64,000 nucleotides of DNA, from assembly GCA_965223585.1 (NCBI GenBank), contig CBDCWW010000010.1, forward strand, positions 55,165 to 119,164. Direction: 5' to 3'. Of the stretch, positions 4,869 to 58,340 are shown in pieces; the first letter of the stretch is position 1; each line of letters starts with the position of its first letter. Origin of the DNA: Trueperaceae bacterium. GTDB lineage: Bacteria; Deinococcota; Deinococci; Deinococcales; Trueperaceae. The notes beneath the pieces are model-generated. The model did no database searches. It saw nothing but the letters and a program-made list of their open reading frames with translations, and was not told the origin of the DNA. Both the position numbers and the translations under genes were made by a program.

Positions 4869-5005
4869 ATTGTCAGAAAAAGTCCTACATAGCTTGTCAG
4901 AGTTTTACTGACTAGTTAGAAAAAGTGATCAACTAAACTAGAGTAGCCAGTAGTTCTAGGGGGCAAATGCTTTTAAATCTACTAATTTAAACAAGGAGGA
5001 AACTC
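4869..5005 (+). promoter_or_regulatory. Dispersed upstream cassette, copy 1 (upstream of the PAN-domain gene)
   Basis: TTGTCAGAAAAAGTCCTACATAGCTTGTCAGAGTTTTACTGACTAGT...CTAGAG..TTCTAG...TTTTAAATCT..AAGGAGG then ATG. It shares all blocks with seven other copies. Confidence 0.7.
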
Positions 5006-36588: not shown

Positions 36589-37200
36589 CATAAAACCACC
36601 ACCAGAGGTGGTGGCTTGTTTTGTTAACCCCTAGAAGGGGTATCGGACGCTAGTGCCCGATACTACTCAAATAGGCTCCTCTGTTGTGCCTCTAATGCTC
36701 TTTCCTTCTGCTCTTGCCAACGTATATACTTCCTTATCTTTTGTTCATCTAACCCTACTGTGCTTACACAATATCCTCTACTCCATAAGCTCTTTTGCGG
36801 ATATCCTCTTAACTTCCTTCCATACATCTTTAGCATGTTTATTGCTGACTTTCCCTTGATAAAGCCCATTATCCCTGACACGGAATATTTTGGTGGGATT
36901 GATACCAACATGTGTACATGATCCTTTCTTATGTTCAGTTCTAACACCTCTACTCTATCTTTTTCTCTACACAACTTGTATATTATCTGCTTCAAGGATT
37001 CCTCTACTCCATCCTTCAGCACTCTAAAACGATACTTTGGACAAAAAACTACGTGATACTCACAACTGTAAATTGAGTGTGACAACTTTTTGTATCTGCT
37101 ATTCTTGGGCATGTATTTCCCTTTCTTTAACCTTCTAGGGAAATACATCATTGCTTAACTAGTAGAACTTTTTACTAGACCACTACCAGAGGTAGTGGTT
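36589..37200 (-). mobile_element. IS200/IS605-family insertion sequence, copy 1
   Basis: tnpA is flanked by terminal hairpins ACCACCACC-AGA-GGTGGTGG (~36595-36616) and ACCACTACC-AGA-GGTAGTGGT (~37179-37199), plus subterminal CCCTAGAAGG / CCTTCTAGGG inverted repeats. Boundaries are approximate. Confidence 0.75.
36663..37112 (-). CDS. tnpA: IS200/IS605-family Y1 (HUH) transposase TnpA
   Basis: YHVVFCPKYR, HUH motif DHVHMLVSIPPKYS, and LWSRGYCVSTVG. Start taken at the ATG at 37112. Confidence 0.85.
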   Translation of the reverse strand: MPKNSRYKKLSHSIYSCEYHVVFCPKYRFRVLKDGVEESLKQIIYKLCREKDRVEVLELNIRKDHVHMLVSIPPKYSVSGIMGFIKGKSAINMLKMYGRKLRGYPQKSLWSRGYCVSTVGLDEQKIRKYIRWQEQKERALEAQQRSLFE

Positions 37201-37615
37201 TCCACCAATGATAATGAAGCAGCTATCAGTCCAGATAATTGGATAATTGACCAATCATTGCTTGATCGTCCGGGCAATAAGGAGATCCAATTGGAGCTGT
37301 TCTATTCATATAAAACAAACCTTCCTCTTTACCCTGAATGGCAGGAATATTTCCGCACACACCAGCCCCCTGCATTACTAGTTTGGGGAAAGAATGACTA
37401 CATCTTTCCTGAGGAAGGTGCGCACCCTTATAAGCAGGATCTAAAAAATCTGGATTTCCACATTTTGGATACAGGGCACTTTGCTTTGGAAGAAGATGGC
37501 TATGTGATTGCTGATCTCATTCGGCGTTTTATGCAAAACAATGTAAATGAATAAATTTAGTTGTGTCCTACTGTTACAGTGCAAAGTTTAACGAAACTAA
37601 ATTGCAGGAAAGAAA

Positions 37616-37775: not shown

Positions 37776-39389
37776 TTATCTTTTAGCTGCCAAGGCCATA
37801 CCAAAAGAATCACCATGTTCAACTGTACCTTTAATGCCACTGCTATTCTGATGCCAGAAATCATCTGCTACACTGGTTAACCCAGAATTTGATCCATAAA
37901 TTACATTGACTGCACCCTCACCGAATGACGACCCTTCATCATTAATGATTTCATTTGGCACTCCTATAGCTAGATCATCTTTCTTATCGCCATTAAAATC
38001 GCCAGCGGCTAACGAATCACCAAATTGATCACCGGATTCAGCTGAACCTCTAATCCCTGGAGAGTTCTGGTGCCACAGTTGATTATCACTTGCTGTAATG
38101 CCTGTAGAGGATCCATAAAGAACATTTACCGCACCAGCGGCGTCCACCGACCCAACATCTTCACGTGGTGCCCCCACAGCAAGATCACAAGCACCATCAC
38201 CATTAAAATCTCCGGAGGTAAGTGTTCTACCAAATCGGTCATCCGATTCAACAGTGCCCGCAATACCAACGCTATCTTGATGCCAAAGGCTATTACCAGC
38301 AGAAGTAACTCCACTATTAGAACCGTACAGAACATGGACTACTCCAGCATTGCTAACAGCACCTATATCTTCAAGGTGAGCACCTATAGCTAAGTCGTCT
38401 TTGCCATCATAGTTGTAATCACAAGCAGTTAATGCCCAACCGAAGTGGTCACCTTTTTCTGTAGCATCTAAGATTCCACCAAATCCCTGCCGAAACCTAT
38501 CAGAATTGGTAAGGCTAAGGCCATTTGTGTCACCATAGAGAACATCAACTATTCCTGAGTTACTCTGGTCATCAACCTCTTCCTCAGGAGTACCTATTGC
38601 CAAATCATCTTTCCCATCACCATTAAAATCTCCAGAGGTAAGTGTGCTACCAAACAGATCCAATTTTTCTATATCGGAACGAGTTGAAATCATACCTTGA
38701 TGAAAAAAGAGGTCTGCTATCCTCATATTGAGACCCTTATTTGAACCGTAGAAAACATGGACAGCGCCAGCGTTTGTAGTTCTTCCTATATTCTCATCAG
38801 GAACCCCTACAGCCAAGTCATCCTTACCATCATTGTTAAAATCCCCCACGGCTAGTGAGTGTCCGAAGCTGTCACCAAGTTCTGATCCCGATGGATCACC
38901 CGTCCCTTTGTCCTGAGTCAAAAAGTAATCAGCTCGCTTGCCTAAGCCACTATTGTAGCCATAAATAATGTGAACAGCCCCAGCCCATGCTAGGGTGCCG
39001 ACCTCCTCATTAGGAACCCCTATAGCTAAATCGTCTTTGCCGTTGCCATCAAAGTCTCCAATAGCTAGTGACCAACCAAAACGGTCAAGAACCTCAGCAC
39101 TATCTACTATGCCAGCACTATCTTGGTGCCATATTTGATCATTAGCAGAAGTCAAACCTGTGTAAGAGCCATAAATTACATTGACTGCACCAGCATCTCT
39201 TAATTCCCCAACGTCTTCATACGGTACCCCTATAGCTAGGTCATCTTTAGCATCTCTGTTAAAGTCTTGGAAACCTATTAAGGTTTCTTCTGGGTTAACT
39301 GTTGGAGTACTTGTGTTTTTCTGACAAGCACTAAGCAAAAGTCCTAAAAATATAAGGAGAATTATACGGCATTTGTATTGTAGTTTCAC
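37776..39389 (-). CDS. FG-GAP repeat lipoprotein (integrin-alpha-like propeller, about 8 repeats)
   Basis: The GTG at 39389 is preceded by AAGGAG at 7 nt. Lipobox LLLSAC. Repeats of D(R/Q/S)FG.SL..GDFNGDGKDDLAIG.P.E.....AGAV.V.YGS..GL. Confidence 0.8.
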   Translation of the reverse strand: MKLQYKCRIILLIFLGLLLSACQKNTSTPTVNPEETLIGFQDFNRDAKDDLAIGVPYEDVGELRDAGAVNVIYGSYTGLTSANDQIWHQDSAGIVDSAEVLDRFGWSLAIGDFDGNGKDDLAIGVPNEEVGTLAWAGAVHIIYGYNSGLGKRADYFLTQDKGTGDPSGSELGDSFGHSLAVGDFNNDGKDDLAVGVPDENIGRTTNAGAVHVFYGSNKGLNMRIADLFFHQGMISTRSDIEKLDLFGSTLTSGDFNGDGKDDLAIGTPEEEVDDQSNSGIVDVLYGDTNGLSLTNSDRFRQGFGGILDATEKGDHFGWALTACDYNYDGKDDLAIGAHLEDIGAVSNAGVVHVLYGSNSGVTSAGNSLWHQDSVGIAGTVESDDRFGRTLTSGDFNGDGACDLAVGAPREDVGSVDAAGAVNVLYGSSTGITASDNQLWHQNSPGIRGSAESGDQFGDSLAAGDFNGDKKDDLAIGVPNEIINDEGSSFGEGAVNVIYGSNSGLTSVADDFWHQNSSGIKGTVEHGDSFGMALAAKR

Positions 39390-39440: not shown

Positions 39441-40072
39441 AGATACCACCACCTGAGGTGGTGGCTTATTTTATTGCCCCTAGAAGGTGGCATGTTACAT
39501 CTACCTTAACCCTCCTTTCCCTAACCTACATTTATTCCTCTTCCTGTTCCTTCTCTTTCTCCTTTTTCTCTTGCCATTTCACATACTTCCTTATCTTTTC
39601 TTCATCCAATCCTACTGTACTTATGCAATACCCTCTACTCCACAAATGCCTTCCCCAATACCGCTTCCCTAACTGTTCGTATCTCTCAAACATTCTTAAC
39701 GCTAACTTCCCTTTCAAGTATCCCATTATGTCTGACAAGCTATACTTTGGCGCTACAGACATCACCAGATGAACATGATCCTCCTGTACATTTAATTCCA
39801 TTACTTCTACTCCGTCCTTGTATCCTAGCAACTGATAAACAGCATTATTTACGTAATCTCCTATCTCTCCTTTCAATATCTTATATCTATACTTTGGACA
39901 AAACACCACGTGATACTTACATTCGTATATAGAATGTGACAACTTCTTAAATCTTTTATTATTATTCATGTGTACCTCCAGAATTTCACCTTCTAGGGAG
40001 GTACATTTTTACCCAACTTTACTACTCGACTGGTAAAACCCCTAATTGCACCACTACCATAGGTAGTGGTTT
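39441..40072 (-). mobile_element. IS200/IS605-family insertion sequence, copy 2
   Basis: Same end architecture as copy 1: hairpins at ~39445-39465 and ~40050-40070, with CCCTAGAAGG / CCTTCTAGGG. Its TnpA is only moderately similar to copy 1's. Confidence 0.75.
39532..39969 (-). CDS. tnpA: IS200/IS605-family Y1 (HUH) transposase TnpA
   Basis: YHVVFCPKYR, DHVHLVMSVAPKYS, LWSRGYCISTVG. GGAGG SD present. Confidence 0.85.
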   Translation of the reverse strand: MNNNKRFKKLSHSIYECKYHVVFCPKYRYKILKGEIGDYVNNAVYQLLGYKDGVEVMELNVQEDHVHLVMSVAPKYSLSDIMGYLKGKLALRMFERYEQLGKRYWGRHLWSRGYCISTVGLDEEKIRKYVKWQEKKEKEKEQEEE

Positions 40073-40191
40073 AGCAGAAGCTAATAAATTTGGTGAGCAA
40101 AGCGTTTGCTACTCAAAACCATTCTAGATGACTGCTTTTGCTAAATAATCAGTAAAATTCTGACAAGCTATGTAGGATTTTTTCTGACATA
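40073..40191 (-). promoter_or_regulatory. Dispersed upstream cassette, copy 2 (minus orientation), cut off from its gene by IS200 copy 2
   Basis: The reverse complement reads TATGTCAGAAAAAATCCTACATAGCTTGTCAGAATTTTACTGATT...CATCTAGAATGG..., running straight into the IS end at 40072. Confidence 0.6.
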
Positions 40192-40323
40192 AGAGTGTCG
40201 CCTCACCTCATAAATTGACATCCCTGAAAGGTATTAAGAAAACAGCCTAGGTATGCAGTAAACAGACTTCTTAACACTATTGGCAAAGGTGTTAGATTTG
40301 AGTTTTACAGATAGAGCTCTAAT

Positions 40324-40347
40324 CCCAACTTTTGTGTAAAAGTTGGG
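40324..40347. repeat. CCCAACTTTT-GTGT-AAAAGTTGGG hairpin (REP-like)
   Basis: 10-bp perfect stem. See 37720-37743. Confidence 0.45.
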
Positions 40348-40516
40348 CAAATCCACAATCTCCAAAAATCTAGGTTGAGATAGGATTAGAGGGATGTTTT
40401 GAATCTAATAGAAAAGCATCTGAAAATTTGTTTCCCCAACTATTGCTTTATATGACCAGAAAAGTTAGGATTCAAACTGTTTAGAAAGTTGAGGTGGTGA
40501 CAACATCACGCACAGG

Positions 40517-40780
40517 TTAGTGCTCTTGTAAGGATTGCTTGAAACTCTCAAAAGAGCTGTGTCGTACTAAATCACGACCTTCTTCGATGTCCTTAATCGC
40601 TTGCCGTGTTTCAGCGTTAGGAATGCGTAAATCAAAAGGAATACCTTGGTTTAGTTCAACCTGATGGTAAAACATACGCACAGCCTCACTAGGCTTAATA
40701 CCCAGTTTGGCAAAGACGGCCTCTGCTGCAATCTTGGTTTTTGGATTAATTCGTACTTGTATCTGGTCTGTTTTATTCAT
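40517..40780 (-). CDS. RelB/DinJ-family type II antitoxin (no adjacent toxin ORF found)
   Basis: 87 aa with QVRINPKTKIAAEAVFAKLGIKPSEAVRMFYHQV..GIPF, the DinJ/RelB ribbon-helix-helix signature. Confidence 0.7.
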   Translation of the reverse strand: MNKTDQIQVRINPKTKIAAEAVFAKLGIKPSEAVRMFYHQVELNQGIPFDLRIPNAETRQAIKDIEEGRDLVRHSSFESFKQSLQEH

Positions 40781-41031
40781 ACTTGCCTCTTGCTTTAGTG
40801 TAATGCAAACACATTACATTTACAACAGAAATCAGGAAAATCACCCTAAGGCTTACTCTAATTGTCAGGGTTTTTTCCTAACATAAATTCCAGTAAGCCT
40901 TTCTAATAGGAAACTAATGGAGAGACCTAAAAGATTTTAAATATTTTCTATGGTGGGCAGAACTATGATACCATTATGGGTGGTAGTTGAGGCAGGGATA
41001 GCCTTACCAAATTAACATTAGGAGTAAAGTC

Positions 41032-41655
41032 ATGACAGAAATACAACCAGAGAAATGTGCAGTAATTGTAGTGGATATGGCTCGAGATTTTATTGAACCG
41101 GGTGGATTCATTGCTGACGCTGGAGGTGCAGACTACCAAGCCAAGGCAAAGGCAATAATTGGGCCTTTAGCACAACTGCTCGATGCGGCTCGAGAGGTTG
41201 GTGTCACGGTGGTTTATTCGACAGATCGACACACACCTGAGGATTCTGAACTCAAAAAATGGCCGCCACATTCAATGGAAGGAACCAAATGGTCTGAAAT
41301 CGTAACTGAGCTAAAGCCCCAGCCGGGTGACCTTGATTTATCAAAGACGACATACAGCGGTTTCCAAAGCTCGGACATAGATGCACAGCTTAGAGCGCGT
41401 GGAATTGAATCCCTTTATATAACTGGGCTTCATACCGACTGTTGTTGCCGGCACACGTCGGGAGATGCCTTTCAAAAAGGTTTTGATTTGGTGTGGGTTA
41501 CAGACGCTCTTCAGGCGTTTACAGACGAAGCGCATGAGAGCGGTTTAGACTACTACAAAGCATGGTACGCAACTGAGCCTGAGCGGCAATTCAAAACGGC
41601 TAACGAGGTTATAAAAAGTTGGTCTAAGGCCACAGCTGCTGTCGCTGCGGCATAG
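41032..41655 (+). CDS. Isochorismatase-family cysteine hydrolase (nicotinamidase-like)
   Basis: VVDMARDF (catalytic Asp), K in the KKWPPHS region, and TGLHTDCCCRHT (catalytic Cys). Confidence 0.75.
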   Translation: MTEIQPEKCAVIVVDMARDFIEPGGFIADAGGADYQAKAKAIIGPLAQLLDAAREVGVTVVYSTDRHTPEDSELKKWPPHSMEGTKWSEIVTELKPQPGDLDLSKTTYSGFQSSDIDAQLRARGIESLYITGLHTDCCCRHTSGDAFQKGFDLVWVTDALQAFTDEAHESGLDYYKAWYATEPERQFKTANEVIKSWSKATAAVAAA

Positions 41656-41727
41656 CATAGCTTCGCTTCATACAGGGGGGCAATTGAGTATAGAATTAGC
41701 TTCAGCAAGGCGCAAATAATATTACAG

Positions 41728-41858
41728 TATGTCAGAAAAAGTCCTACATAATGTGTCAGAGTTTTACCGATTAGTCAGGAAGAAGTAATAATCTAGAATA
41801 GAATAGTTCTAGGTAGCAAATGCTTTTAAGCAACTACTCTTTCAAAAGGAGTAAATCC
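41728..41858 (+). promoter_or_regulatory. Dispersed upstream cassette, copy 3
   Basis: TATGTCAGAAAAAGTCCTACATAATGTGTCAGAGTTTTACCGATTAGT..CTAGAATAGAATAGTTCTAGGTAGC..TTTTAAGCAACTACTCTTTCAAAAGGAG, then the GTG at 41859. Confidence 0.7.
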
Positions 41859-42248
41859 GTGAATAAGTTAAGTGGTAAAACTAAACAATTTCTTAAAGAC
41901 TCTCTGGGCTGGGGTTTTATTCTCTGGCTCATCGGCTACGGTCTTGGCATTATTCTTTTCCCAATTGTGCCAATTCCCTTAATTGGCTGGATCATTATGC
42001 CGGTTGGAGTAGCTATAACGCTTTGGGTATTATTTAAGAAAGTAAAAGGAGATTCGTTTCAGTATTTTGCTCTGCTCGCAGTAGTTTGGGTGCTAATAGC
42101 TATTGTTTTTGATTATTTTTTCCTTGTTAAGGCTTTCCAACCAGAAGATGGATACTACAAGCTGGATGTATATCTATATTATGCTTTGACTTTTGTTCTC
42201 CCTCTTGTGGTCGGTTGGTACAAAAAAAGATCTGCAAATGCATCTTAG
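41859..42248 (+). CDS. Hypothetical 4-TM membrane protein
   Basis: The GTG start lies 7 nt after AAAGGAG. The ORF-track ATG at 41820 lies inside the cassette. Confidence 0.5.
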   Translation: MNKLSGKTKQFLKDSLGWGFILWLIGYGLGIILFPIVPIPLIGWIIMPVGVAITLWVLFKKVKGDSFQYFALLAVVWVLIAIVFDYFFLVKAFQPEDGYYKLDVYLYYALTFVLPLVVGWYKKRSANAS

Positions 42249-42380
42249 GATAAATAGGTCTTCTAAAAAGGCCTTAACGTACTAGCGCTGTATAGGGCAT
42301 AAACTATTTAATGCTCGAGTTCAATACAAAAGGAGATCAAAATACAAGAACTATCACTACTTTCACAAATCAGCCTATAC

Positions 42381-42782
42381 GTGCTACTAACACTGATGGG
42401 TCTACTTACCCTAATCATTTGGGGTTGGCAAATAATGGTACTTCAGGGTAAAGCAATAAAGAATGCCGATGGATCAACAGACGATTGGCACGAGCAGAAG
42501 ATCTTTTACGGTATGGCTTTTGCTGACATATTTCTGGCCTGCCCTGCCTGCATTGCAGCTATTGTTCTTATATTTATAAGCCCCCGTTGGGGCTACTACC
42601 TGCTGATTTGGATCAGTTTTTGGTTTGTTTGGGCAAATATTATGACAACGGCAACCAGCCTACGGTTTGAGAAACCTAAATTCACTCTGATGTGGTTTAT
42701 ATCATTCCCTTTTGGTGCACTTGTCGGATTAGCAACAGTTGTGTGGACAGTAGTCCACTTTGACACCATTTACCTTCCGTGA
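42381..42782 (+). CDS. Hypothetical membrane protein
   Basis: 133-aa hydrophobic ORF from a GTG. A strong AAGGAG at 42329-35 has only ATC/ATA in-frame codons nearby, so the true start is uncertain. Confidence 0.4.
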   Translation: MLLTLMGLLTLIIWGWQIMVLQGKAIKNADGSTDDWHEQKIFYGMAFADIFLACPACIAAIVLIFISPRWGYYLLIWISFWFVWANIMTTATSLRFEKPKFTLMWFISFPFGALVGLATVVWTVVHFDTIYLP

Positions 42783-42804
42783 ATACCTATCAGGAGGAGC
42801 AAGT

Positions 42805-43239
42805 GTGAATATTGTCTGGGGTGTAGTTCTAATTATTTTTACCCTGATTGTGTGCTGGCTGGGGCAAATTATCACTACCATAGCACCAACACTGGCTAGA
42901 CGCTTAGGGATCACCGAGTCTGAAGCTGATGTAGATCCAGCATTTTTTGCAGATGGTCGTGGCGAGGCCATTTGGGATGCGCTAATACTCTGGACACTTC
43001 CAGTTGCAGGCGTATTGCTTATTTTTAAAAACCCGTGGTGGGCCTACTTTGGACTGGTTGGTGGCGGTATGTACCTATACTTTGCTGGGCGCGGCATAGC
43101 TCAACGTCTGGTCATGCAACGTCGTGGCATTCGGATTGGCAAACCATCACTACTGAAGGTGTACTATGTAGTGCTTGTGCTTTGGGGCCTGATTGCTTTG
43201 GTTACAATTGTGATGGCGGTGGTGGCATTACCTTTATGA
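42805..43239 (+). CDS. Hypothetical membrane protein
   Basis: The GTG at 42805 lies 7 nt after AGGAGG. 4 TM segments. Confidence 0.45.
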   Translation: MNIVWGVVLIIFTLIVCWLGQIITTIAPTLARRLGITESEADVDPAFFADGRGEAIWDALILWTLPVAGVLLIFKNPWWAYFGLVGGGMYLYFAGRGIAQRLVMQRRGIRIGKPSLLKVYYVVLVLWGLIALVTIVMAVVALPL

Positions 43240-43290
43240 TTGACCATGATTATTGGACATTAGCAAAAATTATTGTGGTAGGAGCTTAAT

Positions 43291-45237
43291 ATGAAATTTA
43301 CAAAAGCCATGCTTGATAAACCTCGCCCAAATAGCATTAGAAATGTTGTTTTACCTAGGCGTCAAAACTACTTTTCTTCTCCTAGTGATTGGCGTGATGA
43401 AGTACTTTATTTTCTACTAGTAGATCGTTTTAGTGATGGTAAAGAAGCTTCTCGTCCACTGCTTAATAGGCAAAACCCTGCTGCTACCCGCCCTAAATCT
43501 TGGCAATGGAGTAGCTGGGCTCATTCTGGGGCTCATCGTTGGCAGGGCGGTAATCTTGTTGGGGTAAAGTCCAAGCTCAGTTATCTTAAAACCCTTGGAA
43601 TTACTACTATTTGGTTAAGTCCTGTATTTAAGCAGCGTGGGCACTTAGGGACCTACCATGGCTATGGCATTCAAGATTTTTTGGAAGTTGACCCTCGCTT
43701 TGGTACTAGGCAAGATTTGGTTGATCTGGTAAGTGCTGCACATGATGAGGGATTGCGCATTGTCCTTGACATTATCTTTAATCATTCAGGATCTAACTGG
43801 GTCTATGAAAATGGTGGCAGAACCCCTCCTTTTAAACAGTGGCCAGATCACTATGAAAATATTATTTGGCTTGATAGTGAAGGGCAAGAAATAGTTGGAG
43901 TTCAAGGAGGGGACGATGGCGTTTGGCCAGTGGAGTTACAAGATAAAGAACGCTATACCCGGGCTGGAAGTGGTGGACTTGGCTCTGGTAACATAGATGA
44001 TCCCATAGCTGAACATAAACGCAGTGATTTTTTTGACTTGCGAGACTTTAGACTTGATGACGGAACTACTTTAAATAACTTAGCACTATGTTATCAATAC
44101 TGGATAGCTTTAACAGATTGTGATGGTTTTCGTATAGATACACTTAAACATGTATCCCTTGAAGAAGCTCGTAATTTCTGTGGTGCAATTAAAGAGCTTG
44201 CTGTTAATTTAGGCAAACATGACTTTTTCTTGCTTGGTGAGGTAGCTGGTGGAGACTTTGAGCAGGATCGTTACCTCGATGTTCTCCAGAGTAATTTAAA
44301 TGCTGCTCTTGATATAGGAGGTATGCGAATTACCCTAAATAAAGTGGCTAAAGGCCTCAAGCCTCCAACAGCTTACTTTAACGGTTTCAATGCTGGAAAC
44401 GCAATTATGGGTTCACACCGTAACCTTGGGGAACGACATGTGTCAATCCTAGATGACCATGATCATGTTGTTGGTGAAAAAATCCGTTTCTCTAGTGAGG
44501 CAGCTTCCGAGCATCAAATAGTAGCAGGCGTAGCCTTGCAGCTTTTTAGTCTTGGTATTACTTGTATTTACTATGGGACAGAGCAAGCTTTAGCTGGACC
44601 TGAACCTTCTGAAAGAAAGTGGTTACCTGCTTGGAAAGGCAGAGAAGATTTTGCTGATCGTTACTTACGTGAAGCAATGTTTGGTCCTGAACACCCTAAA
44701 CAAGAAGGTACAGACAGTTTGCTGTCAGGAATTGACGGCCAAGATCAAAATCTTCCCGGTTTTGGTCCTTTTGGCACTGCTGGACATCACTGCTTCGACT
44801 CTAAGAATCCTACTTACCTTCGTATTGCAGCTATGACAGAGTTACGCAAACAATACCCAGCTTTGCGCTATGGCCGCCAGTACCTGCGCCAAACTTCTTT
44901 TTTAGGGAAACCCTTTGACTTCCATGGTCCGGGAGAGCTTATGGCTTGGTCACGGATTTTAGCTGACGAGGAATTTGTTTGTGTTCTTAACACTCATGGT
45001 ACTGATAGTCGTGGTGGAGATATTTTAGTTGACGTTAACCTTAATCCGTCTGGAAGCGCTATGGTTGTTATTTTGAATACTATAGAATCTGTGCAAGCTT
45101 CTACCAGTATTCACCCAGTAGGTTCAAAGTCGCTCATTAAGAGAACAAGTGATGGAACAGCATATATAGAGGTTAGAAACCTTGGGCCTTCGGAGGTTTT
45201 GGTTATGTTGGGTGAAGCAAATATAGGGCGAAATTAG
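43291..45237 (+). CDS. GH13 alpha-amylase-family glycoside hydrolase
   Basis: Conserved regions VDRFSDG, LDIIFNH, GFRIDTLKHV, LLGEVAGG, ILDDHD. Confidence 0.85.
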   Translation: MKFTKAMLDKPRPNSIRNVVLPRRQNYFSSPSDWRDEVLYFLLVDRFSDGKEASRPLLNRQNPAATRPKSWQWSSWAHSGAHRWQGGNLVGVKSKLSYLKTLGITTIWLSPVFKQRGHLGTYHGYGIQDFLEVDPRFGTRQDLVDLVSAAHDEGLRIVLDIIFNHSGSNWVYENGGRTPPFKQWPDHYENIIWLDSEGQEIVGVQGGDDGVWPVELQDKERYTRAGSGGLGSGNIDDPIAEHKRSDFFDLRDFRLDDGTTLNNLALCYQYWIALTDCDGFRIDTLKHVSLEEARNFCGAIKELAVNLGKHDFFLLGEVAGGDFEQDRYLDVLQSNLNAALDIGGMRITLNKVAKGLKPPTAYFNGFNAGNAIMGSHRNLGERHVSILDDHDHVVGEKIRFSSEAASEHQIVAGVALQLFSLGITCIYYGTEQALAGPEPSERKWLPAWKGREDFADRYLREAMFGPEHPKQEGTDSLLSGIDGQDQNLPGFGPFGTAGHHCFDSKNPTYLRIAAMTELRKQYPALRYGRQYLRQTSFLGKPFDFHGPGELMAWSRILADEEFVCVLNTHGTDSRGGDILVDVNLNPSGSAMVVILNTIESVQASTSIHPVGSKSLIKRTSDGTAYIEVRNLGPSEVLVMLGEANIGRN

Positions 45238-45525
45238 AGGTTTGCATAACATGACTTAATTATTTTCTTTACCCTTATAAGAATACTTTCCAGTTACACC
45301 GACTTCTTCAATAATAATGCCCTCATCATCAAAAGCTAATGTCCATTTGCCCTTAGTTGAATATCCAATAAGCTCATATTGTGATCATTTTTGCACTAGT
45401 TTTTGCGCTGATCTACATCCGTTTTAAAAACTAGATGCGTGAAGCTCGAGCTTTGCAAAAGTGGTAATGTATAGTTGCTCGAGTTGAGCCAGTAGTGAGC
45501 CTGAACACCTGCTTGAACACTAACC

Positions 45526-45555
45526 TACTGTATCTAAGAATACTGTATCTAAGAA
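45526..45555. repeat. Perfect 15-bp tandem direct repeat (TACTGTATCTAAGAA x2)
   Basis: Read directly from the sequence, ~130 nt upstream of the GC-rich glycosyltransferase gene. Confidence 0.8.
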
Positions 45556-45684
45556 GTAATTCAGGAGAAGTTGTTGCATGAAGATTGTCAGAGAATCAAG
45601 AAAACCCCCGTTATGGGACTTGGCATCACGCACATCCTTCAGAACCAAGGTGCATCATGACAACATTTTCTTATGGGACGGCCT

Positions 45685-46932
45685 ATGAAAATAGCTCTTC
45701 TTACGCTTGGCACGCGGGGTGACACTCAACCTTTTATCGCTTTGGGTAAGGCGCTTAAAGCACGTGGCCACCAAGTTGTGTTGGGCGCACCAGAGAACTT
45801 CCAAACTTGGATCGAAGAACATGGTCTCGCCTATCGCTCAATCGGGGTCGATATGCAGGCTTTCGTTCAGTCCTTGGAAGCACGCAAGGTTATGGCTGGC
45901 AACGTATTCGCCATGGCCCGAATGTGGCGTCGAACCATCGTCCCGTTAACCCGCAAGTCTTTGGAAGCAATTTGGGAGACTGCGCGTGATGCCGATGTCA
46001 TCGTTTATCATCCGAAGACTGCTGGGGCGACCGACGTGAGTGAAGCGACCGGGGCCTCTCTCTTCCAAGCCGCCCCCTTCCCCATCTTCCCAACCAAGGC
46101 CTTCCCGCTGTTTGTGTTTCCCGGCACCTACAGCCCATGGCTCAATCGACTCACCTACGAGGTTCTCATCTTCTCACGGTTGCTCTTCTTGCCCACCGTA
46201 AACGACTGGCGCAACAACATGTTGGGGCTTAAGAAAGTATCGCTGTTCAGTCAGGCACGCACTGCCAAACAGCAAAGCTCAGGGCAATTATGTGCCGTCT
46301 CACCAACCGTTGTGCCTAGCTATCCCGCCACCGACTCAGAAAATATTCAGACGACCGGCTATTGGTTTCTCGATGAGGGTCACGATTGGCAACCTGATGC
46401 CACACTAACGCAGTTCCTCAAAGACGGCGATCCGCCGGTCTACATTGGGTTCGGCTCCATGACAGTGAAGGATCCCATCAGGCTCGCGGAGACCATAGTT
46501 GAAGGTGTGCGCCACGCCGGAGTGCGCGCCATCCTAGCGACTGGGTGGGGTGCGATGGGAAAGATCAATGTTCCTGAGACAATGCACGTCATTGGAGGAG
46601 CTCCCCATAACGCACTCTTCAAGCATGTCTCGGCCGTCGTTCATCATGGTGGAGCGGGTACGACCGCTGCTGGTCTTCGGGCCGGGTTACCGGCGTTGAT
46701 ATGTCCGCTAACGGTTGATCAGCCGTTCTGGGGCCGCCGGGTCCATGCGCTGGGATGCGGGCCCAAACCACAACCGTTGAAGCGTCTGCGGTCAGGCCAG
46801 TTTGCGGAAGGACTGGTGGACTTGATCGAGACGAAGCGATATCGCACCTGCGCTGAGGAGGTAGCTAGGGCTATCACAAAAGAAGAGGGGACCTCTCGAG
46901 CGGTCGAGATAATAGAGGCAGTGAGAAAATGA
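45685..46932 (+). CDS. GT1-family glycosyltransferase (MGT / sterol-macrolide glucosyltransferase-like)
   Basis: MKIALLTLGTRGDTQPFIALGKAL N-terminus and HHGGAGTTAAGLRAGLP nucleotide-sugar motif. Visibly GC-rich relative to its flanks. An alternative ATG lies at 45673. Confidence 0.8.
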   Translation: MKIALLTLGTRGDTQPFIALGKALKARGHQVVLGAPENFQTWIEEHGLAYRSIGVDMQAFVQSLEARKVMAGNVFAMARMWRRTIVPLTRKSLEAIWETARDADVIVYHPKTAGATDVSEATGASLFQAAPFPIFPTKAFPLFVFPGTYSPWLNRLTYEVLIFSRLLFLPTVNDWRNNMLGLKKVSLFSQARTAKQQSSGQLCAVSPTVVPSYPATDSENIQTTGYWFLDEGHDWQPDATLTQFLKDGDPPVYIGFGSMTVKDPIRLAETIVEGVRHAGVRAILATGWGAMGKINVPETMHVIGGAPHNALFKHVSAVVHHGGAGTTAAGLRAGLPALICPLTVDQPFWGRRVHALGCGPKPQPLKRLRSGQFAEGLVDLIETKRYRTCAEEVARAITKEEGTSRAVEIIEAVRK

Positions 46933-47068
46933 CTTGAGTGAGCCTACTTCTCCCCTGCCACATGCTCACATGTGGGGAGTTGCATGGCCTCACTTAATAT
47001 CTTCTAAGCTCCATGTAATAAACAAAGTGTTTGCATCATCGCATTTGAGCAGCTCTTTGTTTAATTAT

Positions 47069-47194
47069 TATGTCAGAAAAAATCCTACATCATTTGTCAG
47101 AGTTTTACTGATTTTCCAGCAAAAAATGATCACCTAGAATAGGATAGCTCTAGGTAGCTTTTAAGCACACTATTCTTTGGAAAGGTGTTTGATA
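47069..47194 (+). promoter_or_regulatory. Dispersed upstream cassette, copy 4
   Basis: TATGTCAGAAAAAATCCTACATCATTTGTCAGAGTTTTACTGATT..CCTAGAATAGGATAGCTCTAGGTAGC TTTTAAGCACACTATTCTTTGGAAAGG, then the ATG at 47195. Confidence 0.7.
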
Positions 47195-47572
47195 ATGTTA
47201 AAACAAATTTTACTTTATGTCGGTGCTGCTCTACCCATTATTTGGGGAATTGCACATCTTTTCCCAACCAGATCAGTTGTGCAAGGATTTGGTAAGATTT
47301 CAGTAGATAATCGCCGGATTATCACTATGGAATGGATTGTCGAAGGTGTTGCTTTGATCTTTATCGGGGTATTGGTGGCTGCTGTAACCATAGTGGCTGA
47401 GCATCAGGTTACTTCACTTATTGTGTACTTGCTAAGTGCTATAACTTTGCTCATTTTGGCCTTAGTATCGCTCTTTACGGGTTTCAAGATTAACTTTTTC
47501 CCATTCAAGCTGTGTCCTGTGCTTTTCACAACTTCTGCTATTCTAATCACCATAGGGGCTTTAGGCTTTTAA
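47195..47572 (+). CDS. Hypothetical 4-TM membrane protein
   Basis: The ATG at 47195 follows GAAAGG. The ORF-track TTG start lies in the cassette. Confidence 0.5.
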   Translation: MLKQILLYVGAALPIIWGIAHLFPTRSVVQGFGKISVDNRRIITMEWIVEGVALIFIGVLVAAVTIVAEHQVTSLIVYLLSAITLLILALVSLFTGFKINFFPFKLCPVLFTTSAILITIGALGF

Positions 47573-47586
47573 AGTAAGGGCTTGAA

Positions 47587-48399
47587 ATGTCAAGTATGCG
47601 AAAAGTAGTGTTGTTTGTCTTGCTTGCCTATGGTTGGTCATGGTTCTTTTGGATACCATCTGCACTAATGGCTAAAGGACTCTTGGTGCCTACTTCACTC
47701 GAGAGCTTCTTCAACTTCGCCTTTAAATTAGGGGGATGGGGTCCTTTACTGGCTGCTTTTCTTGTGACATATTTGGATTTGAAAAAGGAAGGCGTAATTG
47801 ATCTGCTAAGGCGGGGAGTGAAGTACCGATTTGGATTGATATGGTATCTAGTAGCCCTATTTCTTTTTCCCATCCTTATAGGTGGCTCATTGTTTTTAGC
47901 TGCCCTCACTGGGGAACCTCTGCCTGAGTTGGAAGTGCTTGCTGAGCCAATCACAATTCCCATTTCTTTCCTAGTTGTCTTTTTCATGACGGGCCCATTG
48001 CAGGAAGAGTTTGGTTGGCGTGGATTTGTCCAAGAACGTCTTCAGAGTCGGTGGAATGCCCTCACCACGAGTATAGTTGTTGGTACAATGTGGGGCCTTT
48101 GGCATTTGCCTCTCTTTTTTGTTCCAGAGATGGGGTTCTACTATGAGCGACCGATCTTAGGTTTGATACTGTCAACAATACTTGTGTCAATCCCCATAGC
48201 ATGGATTTACAATAATACTGGTCGAAGTGTTCTGGCTGCTATGTTAATGCATGCTTCATTCAATTGGTCACACTTCCTATTTCCAACTCTTAATTCAGAT
48301 CGAGCAAGTTTGATTTTGTTTTTGCTCGAGGCATTCATAGCAGTGATTATTGTTTTGATTTGGGGTTCTAAGACATTGACTAGGGGACCTCAAAAATAG
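47587..48399 (+). CDS. CPBP family intramembrane metalloprotease
   Basis: QEEFGWRGF, WGLWHLP, MHASFNW motifs. Confidence 0.8.
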   Translation: MSSMRKVVLFVLLAYGWSWFFWIPSALMAKGLLVPTSLESFFNFAFKLGGWGPLLAAFLVTYLDLKKEGVIDLLRRGVKYRFGLIWYLVALFLFPILIGGSLFLAALTGEPLPELEVLAEPITIPISFLVVFFMTGPLQEEFGWRGFVQERLQSRWNALTTSIVVGTMWGLWHLPLFFVPEMGFYYERPILGLILSTILVSIPIAWIYNNTGRSVLAAMLMHASFNWSHFLFPTLNSDRASLILFLLEAFIAVIIVLIWGSKTLTRGPQK

Positions 48400-48402
48400 C
48401 AG

Positions 48403-48533
48403 TATGTCAGAAAAAGTCCTACATAATATGTCAGATTATTACTGACTAGTTGGAAAAAAGTAATCGCTTAGAATAAATAGGATAGCCCTAGGTTTTATCT
48501 TAGTTGCCCACACTCAAATGAAAGGAGTGCTCT
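48403..48533 (+). promoter_or_regulatory. Dispersed upstream cassette, copy 5
   Basis: TATGTCAGAAAAAGTCCTACATAATATGTCAGATTATTACTGACTAGTTGGAAAAAAGTAATCGCTTAGAATAAATAGGATAGCCCTAGG...AAAGGAG, then the ATG at 48534. Confidence 0.7.
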
Positions 48534-48701
48534 ATGAAATCAGAAAATAGCTCAAGACCCATTCGGGTTGACAATCAAACAGGTGGTATTCTTTGGTGCA
48601 TTGGTTGGTTATTCACAATTGCATTTGCAAAGCTTGTTTGGTGGCAAGCTCTCTTGGCAATTGTGATTTGGCCATATTATCTTGGGGTGGCTGTCAGGTA
48701 G
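48534..48701 (+). CDS. Small (55 aa) two-TM membrane peptide; paralog of 58341..58520
   Basis: Hand translation gives MKSENSSRPIRVDNQTGGILWCIGWLFTIAFAKLVWWQALLAIVIWPYYLGVAVR. AAAGGAG SD present. It is below the ORF-track size cutoff. Confidence 0.6.
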   Translation: MKSENSSRPIRVDNQTGGILWCIGWLFTIAFAKLVWWQALLAIVIWPYYLGVAVR

Positions 48702-48736
48702 TAAGCAAATTAGACCTTGATCCATAGCCCCATAAC

Positions 48737-49576
48737 ATGATTAGGAAATACCCCTTAACTTCCTACTTTATTTTTGCGACACTGTTCACCTCTGTTCTCC
48801 TTTTACCACTAATCCTTTTTAGTCAAGGTCTGAGCACTTGGGCAGTGTCACAAGATTGGCATTGGGTGGGTGCGCTAGGGCCTATTATGGCGGCTTGCAT
48901 TGTCGTAGCTTCACTCTACGGAAGCTCTGGCCTAACTAATTACTTAACAAGCCTATTTGACACAAGATTCTCACTTTTACTCTTTTTCGTAGCCATTCTT
49001 CCTCTACTACTCTTTCTGATTGTTCAACCCCTCTTGCTGCTTCTAGAAAGGGAACAAGTCAATATCTTAGGAGAGCTTTCTTTTGGCTGGTGGTTAAGTA
49101 CTTTAATTTCATCTCTAGCTTATGGCATAGGAGAAGAGGCAGGTTGGCGGGGGTTTGCTTTGCCACGATTGCAAGCACGTTTCACAGCCTTAACAGCTGT
49201 CATCATATTGACCGTGTTTCACGCCCTGTGGCATCTGCCTTTTTTCTTTTATCGACTCGAGTTTGGCCTAGTAGGTACTGTGGGCTTCTTTATCGGTATG
49301 CTGGCAGGAGCCATTTGTATTTCTTTTTTGTACAATCAGTCAGGCGGCAAGACTTTGTTACCCATTCTTTGGCACACAACTTGGAATGTAGTAAGCTTGC
49401 TCACTTTTGCCACCATTCCCGAGACAGCTTACATTATCAGTACGTTGTTTATAGTTATAGCAGTGGTCATCATCGTTGTCTTCAAACCAAAAAACTTAGC
49501 AAGGAAAGAATTGTATGCTATTAGGGATAGCCATTCTTTGACAGCACCAAAAACTTTAATTGGAACGAAAGGATAA
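48737..49576 (+). CDS. CPBP family intramembrane metalloprotease
   Basis: GEEAGWRGFALP, FHALWHLPFF, WHTTWN. Confidence 0.8.
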   Translation: MIRKYPLTSYFIFATLFTSVLLLPLILFSQGLSTWAVSQDWHWVGALGPIMAACIVVASLYGSSGLTNYLTSLFDTRFSLLLFFVAILPLLLFLIVQPLLLLLEREQVNILGELSFGWWLSTLISSLAYGIGEEAGWRGFALPRLQARFTALTAVIILTVFHALWHLPFFFYRLEFGLVGTVGFFIGMLAGAICISFLYNQSGGKTLLPILWHTTWNVVSLLTFATIPETAYIISTLFIVIAVVIIVVFKPKNLARKELYAIRDSHSLTAPKTLIGTKG

Positions 49577-49585
49577 AAAAGTCAT

Positions 49586-50449
49586 ATGTTAAGCCTCATA
49601 AGGGAATACCCGCTCACAGCTTTTTTTGCCTTTGCAATCGCTATTTCGTGGTTACTCTGGCTGCCTAGAGTGGCAGGGCAGTATGGCTGGATTGGGCCAG
49701 TTTCTCCTTACTGGCACTTTGTTGGCAGCCTTGGCCCCATGTTAGGAGCGCTTATTGTGGCTGGCGTGGTTTATGGGCGAGGAGGGCTCGAGCGCCTCTG
49801 GCAAGGTATGGTAAAGTGGCGGGTCAGCCTTGGCTGGTGGGGAATTGCAGTATTAGGACCTGTTGTGGTCATGCTGCTTGCCATTGTAATTATACGTTTG
49901 ATGGGGAACCCTTGGCCTGAATGGAGGTTGTTAGGCAAAGTTGCTGAGTTTCCGCAGCTAGGCTTTATCGCCCTTTTGATTGCCGAAACTATTTTCTACG
50001 GCTACGGTGAAGAGGTTGGCTGGCGTGGCTTTGCACTGCCTTATTTGCAAAAGAGCTACAGTGCCTTGTGGTCATCGGTGCTGCTAAGCATAGTCTGGTT
50101 CCTGTGGCACACTCCTCTGTTCCTAGTCAATGAAAGCTACCGCCAGATGAATCTGCTTATGCTTCTAGGGTTCTACTTCAGCATTTTGACAGGTGCTATA
50201 CTAATGACTTGGCTTTACAATGGTACAAAAGGCAGTTTGCTGCTATTGGCATTGTTCCACGCTCTTTTAGACATCACCATGATCAACGAAGCTTTGAATC
50301 TTCAGGCGGTTAACCTCATGGGCATGCTGATTACTTTCTGGGGTCTGGCAGCGATCTGGCTGATTATAAAACAAGTAAAAGTCATTTGGGATATTAAGCC
50401 AACACACATCGAATCAAAGCGAGGATCTGATCTGCGCGCTCACGGCTAA
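49586..50449 (+). CDS. CPBP family intramembrane metalloprotease
   Basis: GEEVGWRGFALPYL, WFLWHTPLF, FHALLD. Confidence 0.8.
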   Translation: MLSLIREYPLTAFFAFAIAISWLLWLPRVAGQYGWIGPVSPYWHFVGSLGPMLGALIVAGVVYGRGGLERLWQGMVKWRVSLGWWGIAVLGPVVVMLLAIVIIRLMGNPWPEWRLLGKVAEFPQLGFIALLIAETIFYGYGEEVGWRGFALPYLQKSYSALWSSVLLSIVWFLWHTPLFLVNESYRQMNLLMLLGFYFSILTGAILMTWLYNGTKGSLLLLALFHALLDITMINEALNLQAVNLMGMLITFWGLAAIWLIIKQVKVIWDIKPTHIESKRGSDLRAHG

Positions 50450-50492
50450 CAATATTTGATCCATCATTAGGGCAGAAAATAAGGAGTATAGT

Positions 50493-50699
50493 ATGAGAAA
50501 GCTTGCTAAGCGCTATCCACTCAGAAGCTACTTTGCTTTGGCCTTTACCATTTCTTGGGTCAGCAGCCTAATGGCGTGGGGTGCAAATTTCTTCCGAGGA
50601 GAATCATTCGAACTAAACGATCTTTTTCTCGTCGGCATGCTTATGCTAGCCGGACCCAGACGGTACAGCTTTGGTGCGACATTCTATAAAAAAAGTTAA
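50493..50699 (+). pseudogene. Truncated CPBP protease fragment (5' ~165 nt only)
   Basis: The first ~55 codons closely match the 5' end of 8304..9125 (RSYFALAFTISW..., RGES..ND.., AGP). The match then breaks off and a stop follows. Confidence 0.65.
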
Positions 50700-50715
50700 G
50701 GCAGTCTAAAAAATA

Positions 50716-51549
50716 ATGAAGAGTATAAGACACTCTCAACACTTCTTAACTCAAGATCTTCTTACGATCTCGCAGGGCACCAAAAGGTTTGAGGCTCTGG
50801 CAGTTATTGTAATGGTGTTAATGTTTACTGCTTTCCCACTGCTTCCCTACAGCAGCGTGATTGGCATAGGTATTTGCATTGTGCTTGTGACTGTAGTTAG
50901 TTGGTTCAAGCGTTGGTCAATAGGTGTATCTGTTGGCATGTTTTGCATGGTATGCATTGCGCTTGTCTTGTTGAAGGTGCCCTTTTCCCAACTCTGGCTG
51001 AGCCTTGCCCTTAGCATACAAGTGTTGGTAATAAGAGTTGTGCCTTGGTTGCGTGGAAATGATGCTTGGTTGCGTGTTGGCTCACTGGGAAAAGACATGT
51101 GGTTACTGACAGCAATTTCAGGACTCATGGCTGCCATTGCACTAATAGCTTGGTTTTTACTCCTGCAGCCTAATATCGATGACCTTATAGAGAGCCTCCT
51201 ACCTGACCTAAACCTCGGCTTACTAATTGTGGCTGCTTTACTGTTTTCTATAGTTAATGCAGCAGTGGAGGAAGGTGCATATCGTGGCGTGATTATGGAT
51301 GCCTTAGACAGGTCACTTGGAGCAGGCATTGCAGCGCTTATAATCCAAGCTGTGGCTTTTGGAACATTCCACATTAGAGGTTTTCCACGAGGCTGGTTAG
51401 GCGTTGGCCTTGCTTGTATTTATGGTTTGATGATGGGCATTATACGCAGGCGCACTGAAGGCATGCTGGCACCGTGGATCGCGCATGTTTTTATTGATGT
51501 AGTGATTATGGGCATCGTTATACTCAGTCTAGGCAGCGGCTTGCTTTAA
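50716..51549 (+). CDS. CPBP family intramembrane metalloprotease (divergent)
   Basis: VEEGAYRGV, FGTFH, WIAHVFID motifs, with an extra N-terminal TM region. Confidence 0.7.
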   Translation: MKSIRHSQHFLTQDLLTISQGTKRFEALAVIVMVLMFTAFPLLPYSSVIGIGICIVLVTVVSWFKRWSIGVSVGMFCMVCIALVLLKVPFSQLWLSLALSIQVLVIRVVPWLRGNDAWLRVGSLGKDMWLLTAISGLMAAIALIAWFLLLQPNIDDLIESLLPDLNLGLLIVAALLFSIVNAAVEEGAYRGVIMDALDRSLGAGIAALIIQAVAFGTFHIRGFPRGWLGVGLACIYGLMMGIIRRRTEGMLAPWIAHVFIDVVIMGIVILSLGSGLL

Positions 51550-51588
51550 CTGTGCCTTTACCACCTTCTGACTAGCTTGGAGGATTCT

Positions 51589-52617: not shown

Positions 52618-52686
52618 CATTTCAGGCAAGGTGTATTATCAGATTGTGCTTTTGCCTTTGTGATTAACAACGTTGGAAGCATTGAA
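52602..52686. repeat. ~85-bp dispersed repeat R2, copy 2 (covers the last 5 codons and 3' flank of the oxidoreductase)
   Basis: See 28123-28207. Confidence 0.7.
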
Positions 52687-52886
52687 AACAAAGTATCCGC
52701 ATTAATGATTGAGTATTGATTTTTCAGTACTATTGCTTAGACAATTAGTTGAATGTCTGCTTAATAAGTCATAACAATTCTAATAAAGTACAGTTTTATG
52801 GACTAGCACTAGCTTAATCATCAATAAAAACGATAAAAAATATCCAAACATAAATCTATCTAGGCCTAATGTGAGAGGTCTATTAT

Positions 52887-53252
52887 TTAAAAACTCATCC
52901 AAAACAACCAACCTCCCAAAATGAGGAGGAGAATGGCTTCAATTGTTTGATGGCTTTTGAACAGTTGCGCTTGTTTATGGATATACTCCGGAAAACCAAT
53001 TTTCATAACTCCCTTGATTAACGTGGACCAACCTAAAATAGTAATAGCAATTCTCCAATCAGCAACCCAAACATTATGTAAAATTACAGTAACTAATCCC
53101 AAGAGTAGCGTGATATAGCCAGTAGATATAACAAAAGCTTTATCTTCAGTCATCTCTATAACCCTGCCCAAATACTTTGCTCCAAGAAAAAGTAGGCCAA
53201 AAATTAGAAAGAAACTGCCTAAAAATCTTGCAAAAAAGATCGAAATTTCCAT
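52887..53252 (-). CDS. Hypothetical 4-TM membrane protein
   Basis: 121-aa hydrophobic ORF directly downstream of cassette copy 6. Confidence 0.5.
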   Translation of the reverse strand: MEISIFFARFLGSFFLIFGLLFLGAKYLGRVIEMTEDKAFVISTGYITLLLGLVTVILHNVWVADWRIAITILGWSTLIKGVMKIGFPEYIHKQAQLFKSHQTIEAILLLILGGWLFWMSF

Positions 53253-53391
53253 AGTATTTTATCCACTCACACTATTTTAAGTGAATTTGCCAGTATAAAA
53301 AGCATTTGTCACTCAAAATTATTCTAGGTGATTACTTTCACTGATTAATCGGTAAAACTCTGACAAGTTATGTAGGACTTTCTCTGACATA
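53253..53391 (-). promoter_or_regulatory. Dispersed upstream cassette, copy 6 (minus orientation)
   Basis: The reverse complement reads TATGTCAGAGAAAGTCCTACATAACTTGTCAGAGTTTTACCGATTAATCAG..CACCTAGAATAA..., then the ATG at 53252. Confidence 0.65.
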
Positions 53392-53572
53392 CCATTAATC
53401 AAGCTTCTATGCAAAAACCTACTGACGTTCATCCTCTTTTAAAGATAAAAAGAAAAATTATAGCATTCTCCTAAACAAACTGGTACAGTTATGGGAAATA
53501 GATTTGTGGAATAGTGTTTTTAGCCCTCTCGCCGCCAGTGTTTTTCTCTTATCAAAGAATATTTAGGAACTG

Positions 53573-54022: not shown

Positions 54023-54127
54023 TGGCGAATCCTCCCAAACTAATCGAAAATAACCATCCAAGGCCGCTACTTACATTGAAGCTCGAGCTAATTAGGCTGA
54101 ACGATATTGTGATTTCTATTTAACTAC

Positions 54128-56231: not shown

Positions 56232-56249
56232 CTATTTTATCTACAGCAA

Positions 56250-56379
56250 TATGTCAGGAAAAGTCCTACATAACTTATCAGAGTTTTACCGATTAGCTAG
56301 AAAAAGTGAACAAATAAAATTAAGGTGCTTTAGGCAGCAAGTTTTTTTAAGCACACTACTTCTTTGGAAGGAGAACGTC
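56250..56379 (+). promoter_or_regulatory. Dispersed upstream cassette, copy 7
   Basis: TATGTCAGGAAAAGTCCTACATAACTTATCAGAGTTTTACCGATTAGCTAGAAAAAGTGAAC...TTTTTAAGCACACTACTTCTTTGGAAGGAG, then the ATG at 56380. Confidence 0.7.
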
Positions 56380-57207: not shown

Positions 57208-57268
57208 CCACTTATTCATCAGACAGATTTATAATGATGGGATTTTCTCTTAGTTTATTGGACACACC

Positions 57269-58219: not shown

Positions 58220-58340
58220 TATGCAAAAAAAATCCTATATAGCATGTCAGATTTTTACTGACTAGTTGCAAAAAAGTAATCGTCTAGAATGTATAGGATA
58301 GCTCTAAGTTTTAGCTTAGTAGTCCACACTCAAATTGTTT
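58220..58340 (+). promoter_or_regulatory. Dispersed upstream cassette, copy 8 (5' block degenerate)
   Basis: TATGCAAAAAAAATCCTATATAGCATGTCAGATTTTTACTGACTAGTTGCAAAAAAGTAATCGTCTAGAATGTATAGGATAGCTCTAAG. About 90% identical to copy 5. Confidence 0.65.

Follow-up and report, generated by a model that had tools for sequence, protein, structure and literature searches.

The sequence at 41728-41858 belongs to a family of short cassettes that precede diverse genes in the window (the whole stretch of DNA analyzed here, 64 kb in length) and that most likely represent a shared, regulated promoter. The specific reading that we favor, with a probability of roughly 0.48, is that the cassette is a DNA-level promoter-operator module which has been propagated before different genes within an accessory island. 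The coordinates of the relevant features are given in Table 1.

Arrangement of the cassettes and the genes behind them

A search with the 21-mer TGTCAGAGTTTTACYGAYTAG, with up to three mismatches allowed, identifies eight copies of the cassette in the 64-kb window, where none is expected by chance, and an nhmmer profile of the 5'-terminal 75 nt, built from 11 aligned copies, retrieves the same eight with E-values from 1e-17 to 1e-21 and no weaker ones. The first-pass annotation of this DNA had described eight copies located at a fixed distance from the start codon in the orientation of the gene, and had proposed a profile scan; the scan of the window returned these eight copies and no others. 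All eight are directed toward the next gene, as are those copies in related genomes for which the downstream gene is readable. The distance from the cassette start to the start codon is 121-139 nt in seven of the eight copies and, given that the first TGTCAG is located at offset 2, this corresponds to the 119-137 nt previously noted for TGTCAG. The fixed distance does not extend to copy 40191(-), which was severed from its FG-GAP gene by an IS200/IS605-type insertion at offset ~119; the start codon of that gene is GTG 39389, behind AAGGAG, so that the original distance was about 170 nt. Seven copies are clustered within 18 kb of one island. Several cassettes are found directly 3' of stop codons within co-directional gene strings, and in three of them the gap to the upstream stop codon is 4, 19 and 38 nt; because the cassettes abut these stops without intervening terminators, read-through transcripts must contain them, a point against the promoter-operator module.

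The genes linked to the cassettes encode a PAN-domain protein, an FG-GAP lipoprotein, three small membrane proteins, peptides of 55 and 59 aa, and an SDR. Further genes of the same operons code for four CPBP/Rce1-like proteases, a GT28 glycosyltransferase, an amylase, Zn-dependent dehydrogenases and an SRPBCC protein. The earlier description of the downstream genes as unrelated is correct for most pairs, for which an all-against-all BLASTP comparison detects no similarity (all E > 0.5), but has to be amended for the 55- and 59-aa peptides, which are paralogs (93% identical in the same comparison), and for the PAN protein and the 129-aa membrane protein, which have their first nine residues, MNKLxGKTK, in common. 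In the region 56251-57207, a 13-codon frame of the conserved 5' block has CGA in place of its TGA stop and continues in frame into the SDR gene; the resulting 318-aa ORF is spurious, and an annotator could take it for the gene.

Structure of the cassette and the predicted promoter

Among the copies in the window, pairwise identity is 0.86 (range 0.81-0.91) over offsets 0-47, 0.67 over offsets 47-75 and 0.56 from offset 75 to the start codon; the background is 0.49 in the upstream flank and 0.51 in the first 60 nt of the coding sequence. Judging from this profile, the actual cassette is a unit of about 72 nt that is followed by a leader of similar length, largely gene-specific. The total length is ~75-130 bases, with homology ending at approximately offset 72 (copies 41728 and 47069 are 83% identical across 90 nt), and the flanks of the copies are unrelated. 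The 47-nt block contains the direct repeat TGTCAGA-N17-TGTCAGA and an imperfect palindrome that is confined to offsets 3-43. Of the ordered blocks that the first-pass annotation had assigned to all copies, the first two are indeed present in all eight, the CTAGA..TCTAG repeat can be recognized clearly in no more than about five, and the TTTTAAGCACACTA..GGAG block turned out to be confined to one subfamily.

The observation that the cassette lacks a TTGACA/TATAAT pair is borne out, but every copy contains a -10-like hexamer at offset 65/66 (15 of 15, comprising the eight copies in the window, six in relatives and one that is truncated at the 5' end). The hexamer is TAGAAT or, in one family each, TAAAAT or TAAACT; T1, A2, A4 and T6 are invariant and the variant families differ only at positions 3 and 5, with 40-60% conservation in the flanking columns. 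The hexamer is separable from the CTAGA/TCTAG repeat, given that in copy 4869 an arm of the repeat is mutated and TAnnnT is kept. There is no conserved -10-like hexamer upstream. The Shine-Dalgarno sequence and the start codon are located 50-70 nt downstream of the hexamer.

Elsewhere, this genome uses GC-hairpin/T-tract terminators and, as had been pointed out, canonical TTGACA-17-TATAAT promoters, so that a lone -10 box implies help from a factor. Homology stops just past the hexamer, and the conserved part is thus what would be expected of untranscribed promoter DNA. Under the mechanism that we propose, the cassette would be a factor-dependent promoter of the sigma-A type, with a -10 box and without a usable -35 hexamer; transcription would start ~7 nt past the TAGAAT-type hexamer, at cassette offset ~77-79, so that each 5' UTR would be gene-specific, ~45-60 nt long and equipped with a strong Shine-Dalgarno sequence. 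The 47-bp block, with its imperfect 41-bp palindrome at approximately -75 to -35, would be the binding site of a putative regulator, more likely an activator over the -35 region although possibly a repressor. At least eight transcription units would then respond together and form a regulon, specific to the lineage, whose products are membrane, envelope and detoxification-type proteins. Beyond the conserved hexamer at its fixed offset, these steps are what we infer from the sequence. The proposal of a portable regulatory module put forward in the first-pass annotation is retained in so far as the copies are co-oriented, TAnAnT is at a fixed offset, homology ends behind it, and promoters and 5' ends have visibly been captured by unrelated genes; its option of a structured 5' leader is not (see below). 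A search of the window and the related loci found no regulator gene, and half-sites or bipartite motifs beyond those in the cassettes, sought as markers of such a gene, occur at chance level only. The promoter-operator module accounts less well for the even conservation of the 47-nt block, spacers included, which is broader than a typical operator, and for the palindrome, which keeps conserved mismatches and in which several substitutions would still permit G-U pairing in the sense strand, also suiting an RNA hairpin.

Table 1. Cassette copies and their elements in the window
Feature	Coordinates	Strand	Remarks
Focal cassette copy	41728..41858	+	Before gene for 129-aa membrane protein (GTG 41859)
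Highly conserved 47-nt 5' block	41728..41774	+	86% pairwise identity among paralogous copies
TGTCAGA box 1	41730..41736	+	Candidate -35 if the block is ECF-like; otherwise outer left part of the palindrome
TGTCAGA box 2	41754..41760	+	17 nt past box 1; its TGTC is the candidate -10 if the block is ECF-like
Imperfect 41-nt palindrome/hairpin	41731..41771	.	GTCAGAAAAAGTC ... GAGTTTTACYGAY; proposed operator/activator site, ~-75 to -35
TAGAAT	41794..41799	+	Proposed sigma-A-type -10 hexamer, offset 66
Equivalent hexamers	4934-4939, 47135-47140, 48469-48474, 56315-56320, 58285-58290	+	
Equivalent hexamers	40121-40126, 53321-53326	-	
CTAGAA-N8-TTCTAG inverted repeat	41793..41812	+	Across -10 hexamer and predicted start site; some copies only
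Shine-Dalgarno AAGGAG	41846..41851	+	7 nt before GTG 41859
Cassette copy	4869..5005	+	Before PAN-domain secreted protein (ATG 5006); hexamer TAAACT
Cassette copy	40073..40191	-	Cut at offset ~119 by IS; originally for FG-GAP lipoprotein gene (GTG 39389)
Cassette copy	47069..47194	+	Before 125-aa membrane protein and CPBP protease
Cassette copy	48403..48533	+	Before 55-aa peptide, CPBP proteases, Zn-ADH; 4 nt past upstream stop
Cassette copy	53253..53391	-	Before 121-aa membrane protein (ATG 53252)
Cassette copy	56250..56379	+	Before SDR, SRPBCC protein, 107-aa protein; 19 nt past upstream stop; hexamer TAAAAT
Cassette copy	58220..58340	+	Most degenerate; before 59-aa peptide; 1-nt deletion in box 1, without GGAG
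IS200/IS605-type element	39447..40072	-	tnpA 39532-39969; in leader of copy 40191; boundaries good to ~10 nt

Taxonomic range and spread

The cassette is present in few copies, is bound to an island and is restricted to one low-GC lineage of Trueperaceae (Deinococcota). The cassette pattern has three hits in a related 5.16-Mb MAG labeled 'Trueperaceae' (CBDCVN010000013.1), and besides this MAG no match was found among 185,579 species representatives; scans of metagenomes and viruses yielded chance matches only. Further copies are present in the related sequences L002, L003, L004 and L015, and none were detected in 43 kb of other DNA from the lineage, which comprises L014, part of the same MAG, and L016, a core region of a related species. 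The lineage, as represented by the window, L004, L015 and L016, is characterized by a GC content of ~38-42% and strong AGGAG Shine-Dalgarno sequences; cultured Trueperaceae have a much higher GC content. The Trueperaceae label of the related MAG is credible despite its ~41% GC because PheA, the product of a housekeeping gene of a relative, has named homologs only in Deinococcales, Trueperaceae and Truepera.

The clearest junction is found in the focal gene. The 129-aa protein belongs to a family with 70-83% identity across Patescibacteria and Methanoperedens, the members of which start with MTKQF..., and the protein encoded in the window has MNKLSGK before the family start, so that its first nine residues, MNKLSGKTK, match MNKLxGKTK of the PAN proteins. 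The 6-residue N-terminal extension is absent from the homologs in other phyla and is common to the PAN proteins, and it follows that the cassette, together with the first codons, was joined in frame to a foreign 129-aa gene. In the related MAG, the units that correspond to 47123-48704 and 49564-50645 of the window sit between the equivalents of 8109 and 8997, and the left breakpoint is inside a cassette that has kept TAGAAT and the leader and has lost the first ~25 nt (the locus L002 4100-4240, where the 125-aa gene follows this shortened cassette; compare 47069-47194 in the window). We read the spread of the cassette as promoter propagation by recombination, in which the copies would have arisen via local duplication and recombination and not via transposition.

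Several observations concern the same loci. The 129-aa protein (41859-42248) matches no Pfam family and has ~2,000 homologs at 70-83% identity in Patescibacteria, Methanoperedens (archaea) and metagenome contigs; for a membrane protein of this small size, such cross-domain conservation is unusually high and points to frequent horizontal transfer. A CPBP gene is preceded by the region 8110-8267, which may be what is left of a decayed cassette. In addition to the IS200/IS605-type element in copy 40191, the window contains a second one at ~36600-37201 (-), with a Y1 transposase ORF at 36663-37151; both elements have Y1 transposase ORFs and GC-rich end hairpins. In L015 (1840-2038, minus strand), an IS with a DDE transposase directly follows the Shine-Dalgarno sequence of a cassette, the second case of an IS in a cassette leader.

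Alternative explanations

The 47-nt block might instead be a promoter for a sigma factor of the ECF41/ECF42 type, with TGTCAGA and (T/C)GTC as the -35 and -10 elements on either side of a 17-nt spacer; transcription would then start at offset ~36-38, and the ~95-nt 5' UTR would contain the TAGAAT region. The bipartite motif resembles both the ECF41 signature TGTCACA-N16(+/-1)-CGTC, with the variants TGTT and TGTC (PMC3426412), and a promoter upstream of rpoE10 in S. meliloti, TGTCGGA-N16-CGTC (PMC6180224): TGTCAGA is found in six of seven cases, followed by the 17-nt spacer and TGTC, which is CGTC in the L015 copy. The pattern TGTCASA-N15-18-GTC occurs in six window copies versus 0.74 expected, and one target is an SDR/epimerase-type oxidoreductase, a kind of gene controlled by ECF41 factors. 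However, the -35 element of the cassette is TGTCAGA, the spacer and the 15 nt past the '-10' vary as little as the boxes, GTC is mutated in two copies (TATC, TGCC), and both the TAnAnT hexamer and the end of homology at offset 72 are left unexplained. Furthermore, ECF41 factors have a C-terminal extension and a single target (COE) that is adjacent to the sigma gene (PMC3426412), whereas the cassette has at least eight targets and no adjacent sigma gene is seen; no sigma-factor domain was detected among ~50 ORFs by Pfam search or among precomputed Pfam hits for the genes of L004, L014, L015 and L016, and no 'simple' bipartite ECF-like site was found outside the cassettes. We consider the alternative sigma factor, which had been offered as an option, rather unlikely. 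Far less probable is a selfish or neutral repeat without a regulatory function, that is, a MITE- or REP-like palindrome or a relic of duplication or gene conversion. The palindromic core, the IS-rich, rearranged island, the IS insertions in two copies and the confinement to one lineage are compatible with such an origin and, similarly to the Correia and ERIC MITEs and to REP/REPIN sequences, the cassette is a short intergenic repeat that is often found after a stop codon; such repeats can also bring a promoter. In contrast to these elements, it is present in very few copies (three pattern hits in 5.16 Mb) with a strict orientation toward the gene (8/8) at a fixed distance, an inverted-repeat search shows no shared terminal inverted repeats bounding it, and there are no target-site duplications in its flanks. 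The graded conservation, which peaks in the 47-nt block with the rest diverged to background, indicates selection on the block.

A function at the RNA level, with the cassette forming part of the transcript, as a 5' leader or between cistrons, and controlling stability or translation, is unlikely in our assessment. A protein or an RNase would then recognize the 41-nt hairpin, or the hairpin would alternate between pairing with its own left arm and with codons 2-9 of the ORF downstream. The boundaries of the conserved block are those of the hairpin, cassettes occur directly after stop codons in co-directional gene strings, standard pairs are found in 94.5% of the pair cells, and four pairs vary on one side yet stay paired, mostly as G-U; by the same pair count, there are no compensatory changes, and 10 cells break pairs. 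Complementarity of the right arm to the first 33 nt is somewhat higher for the cassette ORFs than for controls (mean -8.4 versus -6.4 kcal/mol; p = 0.011, with copies that are not independent), which also counts against the promoter-operator module, but this weak, post hoc signal is driven by two gene families that share 5' ends by descent. Folding z-scores range from -0.3 to -2.3 for the hairpin and from +0.1 to -1.9 for the whole leader, without a common fold; the only structure that RNAalifold predicts is the 5' hairpin, at a covariation term of -0.01. A hairpin that sequesters the Shine-Dalgarno sequence, as in RNA thermometers, was rejected because the pairing probability of this sequence is not above that of 23 control genes (p = 0.13), and long-range pairing between the 5' flank and the start region is not significant (p = 0.12). 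Rfam 15 has no hits at gathering scores in the whole window, and at E <= 5 the region 40000-59000 yields four matches, all below threshold (17.8-18.9 bits, where the gathering scores are 52-100), none of which recurs across copies. These results are in line with the earlier statement that the cassette is not recognizable as any described riboswitch or leader, and speak against its being a structured 5' leader. An improbable extension of the RNA-level function is that the cassette is a portable expression platform, partly RNA, which was recombined, sometimes in frame, onto horizontally acquired ORFs, amounting to integron-independent gene capture and expression, with a hairpin that switches between self-pairing and the first codons. 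The least plausible alternative, with hardly any probability, is that the 47-nt block encodes a 13-residue leader peptide, MSEKVLHNLSEFY, in the frame ATG/TTG TCA GAA AAA GTC CTA CAT AAC TTG TCA GAG TTT TAC TGA. This frame is open in 13 of the 14 copies, TTG takes the place of ATG in three, and several replacements are conservative (V/I, L/V/M, E/D, F/Y), but it is preceded by neither a Shine-Dalgarno sequence nor a promoter, and five copies have CGA in place of the TGA stop codon. The distinct variants include 4 synonymous and 13 non-synonymous ones (23.5% versus 20.4% expected at random) and are distributed 6:5:6 over the codon positions, a neutral-like pattern in which nothing indicates coding selection; among the 10 in-frame differences within the four closest pairs (three orthologous pairs and c40191 versus L004b), 8 are non-synonymous and 2 synonymous.

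Comparison with known systems

The promoter-operator module can be compared with several described types of elements. Putative mobile promoters, as outlined by Matus-Garcia, Nijveen & van Passel 2012 and in a commentary (PMC3575422), are sequences of at least 50 nt with at least 80% identity that are located at approximately -150 to -50 from the starts of non-homologous genes in one genome; in the account given in the commentary, their families have no Rfam match and their function is mostly undescribed (PMC3575422). The cassette fits this published definition: identity is at least 80% (0.81-0.91 over offsets 0-47, and 83% over 90 nt between 41728 and 47069), the 47-nt block is located 74-139 nt before the start codons, and the adjacent coding sequences are non-paralogous except for the 55/59-aa peptides, with promoter activity being a prediction. 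The differences are that the cassettes are few and clustered in one island (seven in 18 kb) and that they possess a recognizable -10 hexamer, a palindromic block and one in-frame fusion to a foreign ORF. Promoters that depend on LysR-type or other class II activators likewise combine a -10 box without a -35 box with a long dyad site at approximately -75 to -35 and rigid spacing, but the cassette has neither a T-N11-A box at the usual spacing nor a divergent regulator gene, and the binding is predicted.

Within the same phylum, the DdrO operator of Deinococcus (RDRM) is a 17-bp palindrome with the consensus TATGYYHTTARCRKA (PMC8533742). The cassette has similar half-site-like arms (TATGTCA...ACATA), and, like the RDRM, it would define a regulon through a palindrome in promoter regions; however, the cassette site spans 41-47 bp, compared to 17 bp, and is associated with membrane and detoxification targets as opposed to DNA-repair genes. 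Identity with the RDRM was rejected because, although TATGTCA agrees with the left half, the ACATA of the right half is 13 nt away versus ~5 nt. Arrays of integron attC sites resemble the cassettes in that a repeated unit of ~120 nt with an imperfect palindrome is found between small unrelated ORFs in an array, but the alignments of the cassette contain no RYYYAAC/GTTRRRY cores, the palindrome is only 41 nt long, the units are multi-gene and located on both strands, and the cassette carries the Shine-Dalgarno sequence of the next gene; no integrase was found among the scanned ORFs.

The cassette opens no new category of mechanism since promoter propagation is already known. If the promoter-operator module is real, it would define a compact, lineage-specific regulon in an uncultured and unusually low-GC branch of Deinococcota, and would provide a natural example of promoter propagation in which the same module was placed on unrelated genes, several of which look horizontally acquired; the propagation would be visible as one fusion junction inside a coding region and as a sister genome with a different order of units. 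The 47-bp block would also be a ready-made bait for finding the putative regulator.

Other repeats in the window

Two compact units that are 90% identical (27625-27733 and 28297-28405, minus strand) flank a PspC-like gene (27879-28124). Each consists of a TTGACA-17-(TGc)TAATAT/TAACAT promoter and a GC hairpin with a T-run terminator, with a predicted transcript of ~60 nt that contains an unpaired C-rich stretch, CCCCCCTTTTACCCCCTTT. By their layout these units look like a duplicated small-RNA gene; a search against Rfam gave only sub-threshold matches (PinT, mmgR). A 56-nt repeat with 91% identity covers the start codon of the PspC-like gene (28120-28175) and, in its second copy (52599-52654), extends from the end of the Zn-ADH gene (51577-52617) into the sequence that follows. 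Repeats within genes or between them include units of ~170 nt at 929-2094 within the 671-aa ORF 75-2090, FG-GAP repeats of 210 nt at 37942-39267, and tandem paralogous genes for FtsX/MacB-type permeases at 12943-16779, where neighbors are 94% identical over a 300-nt stretch.
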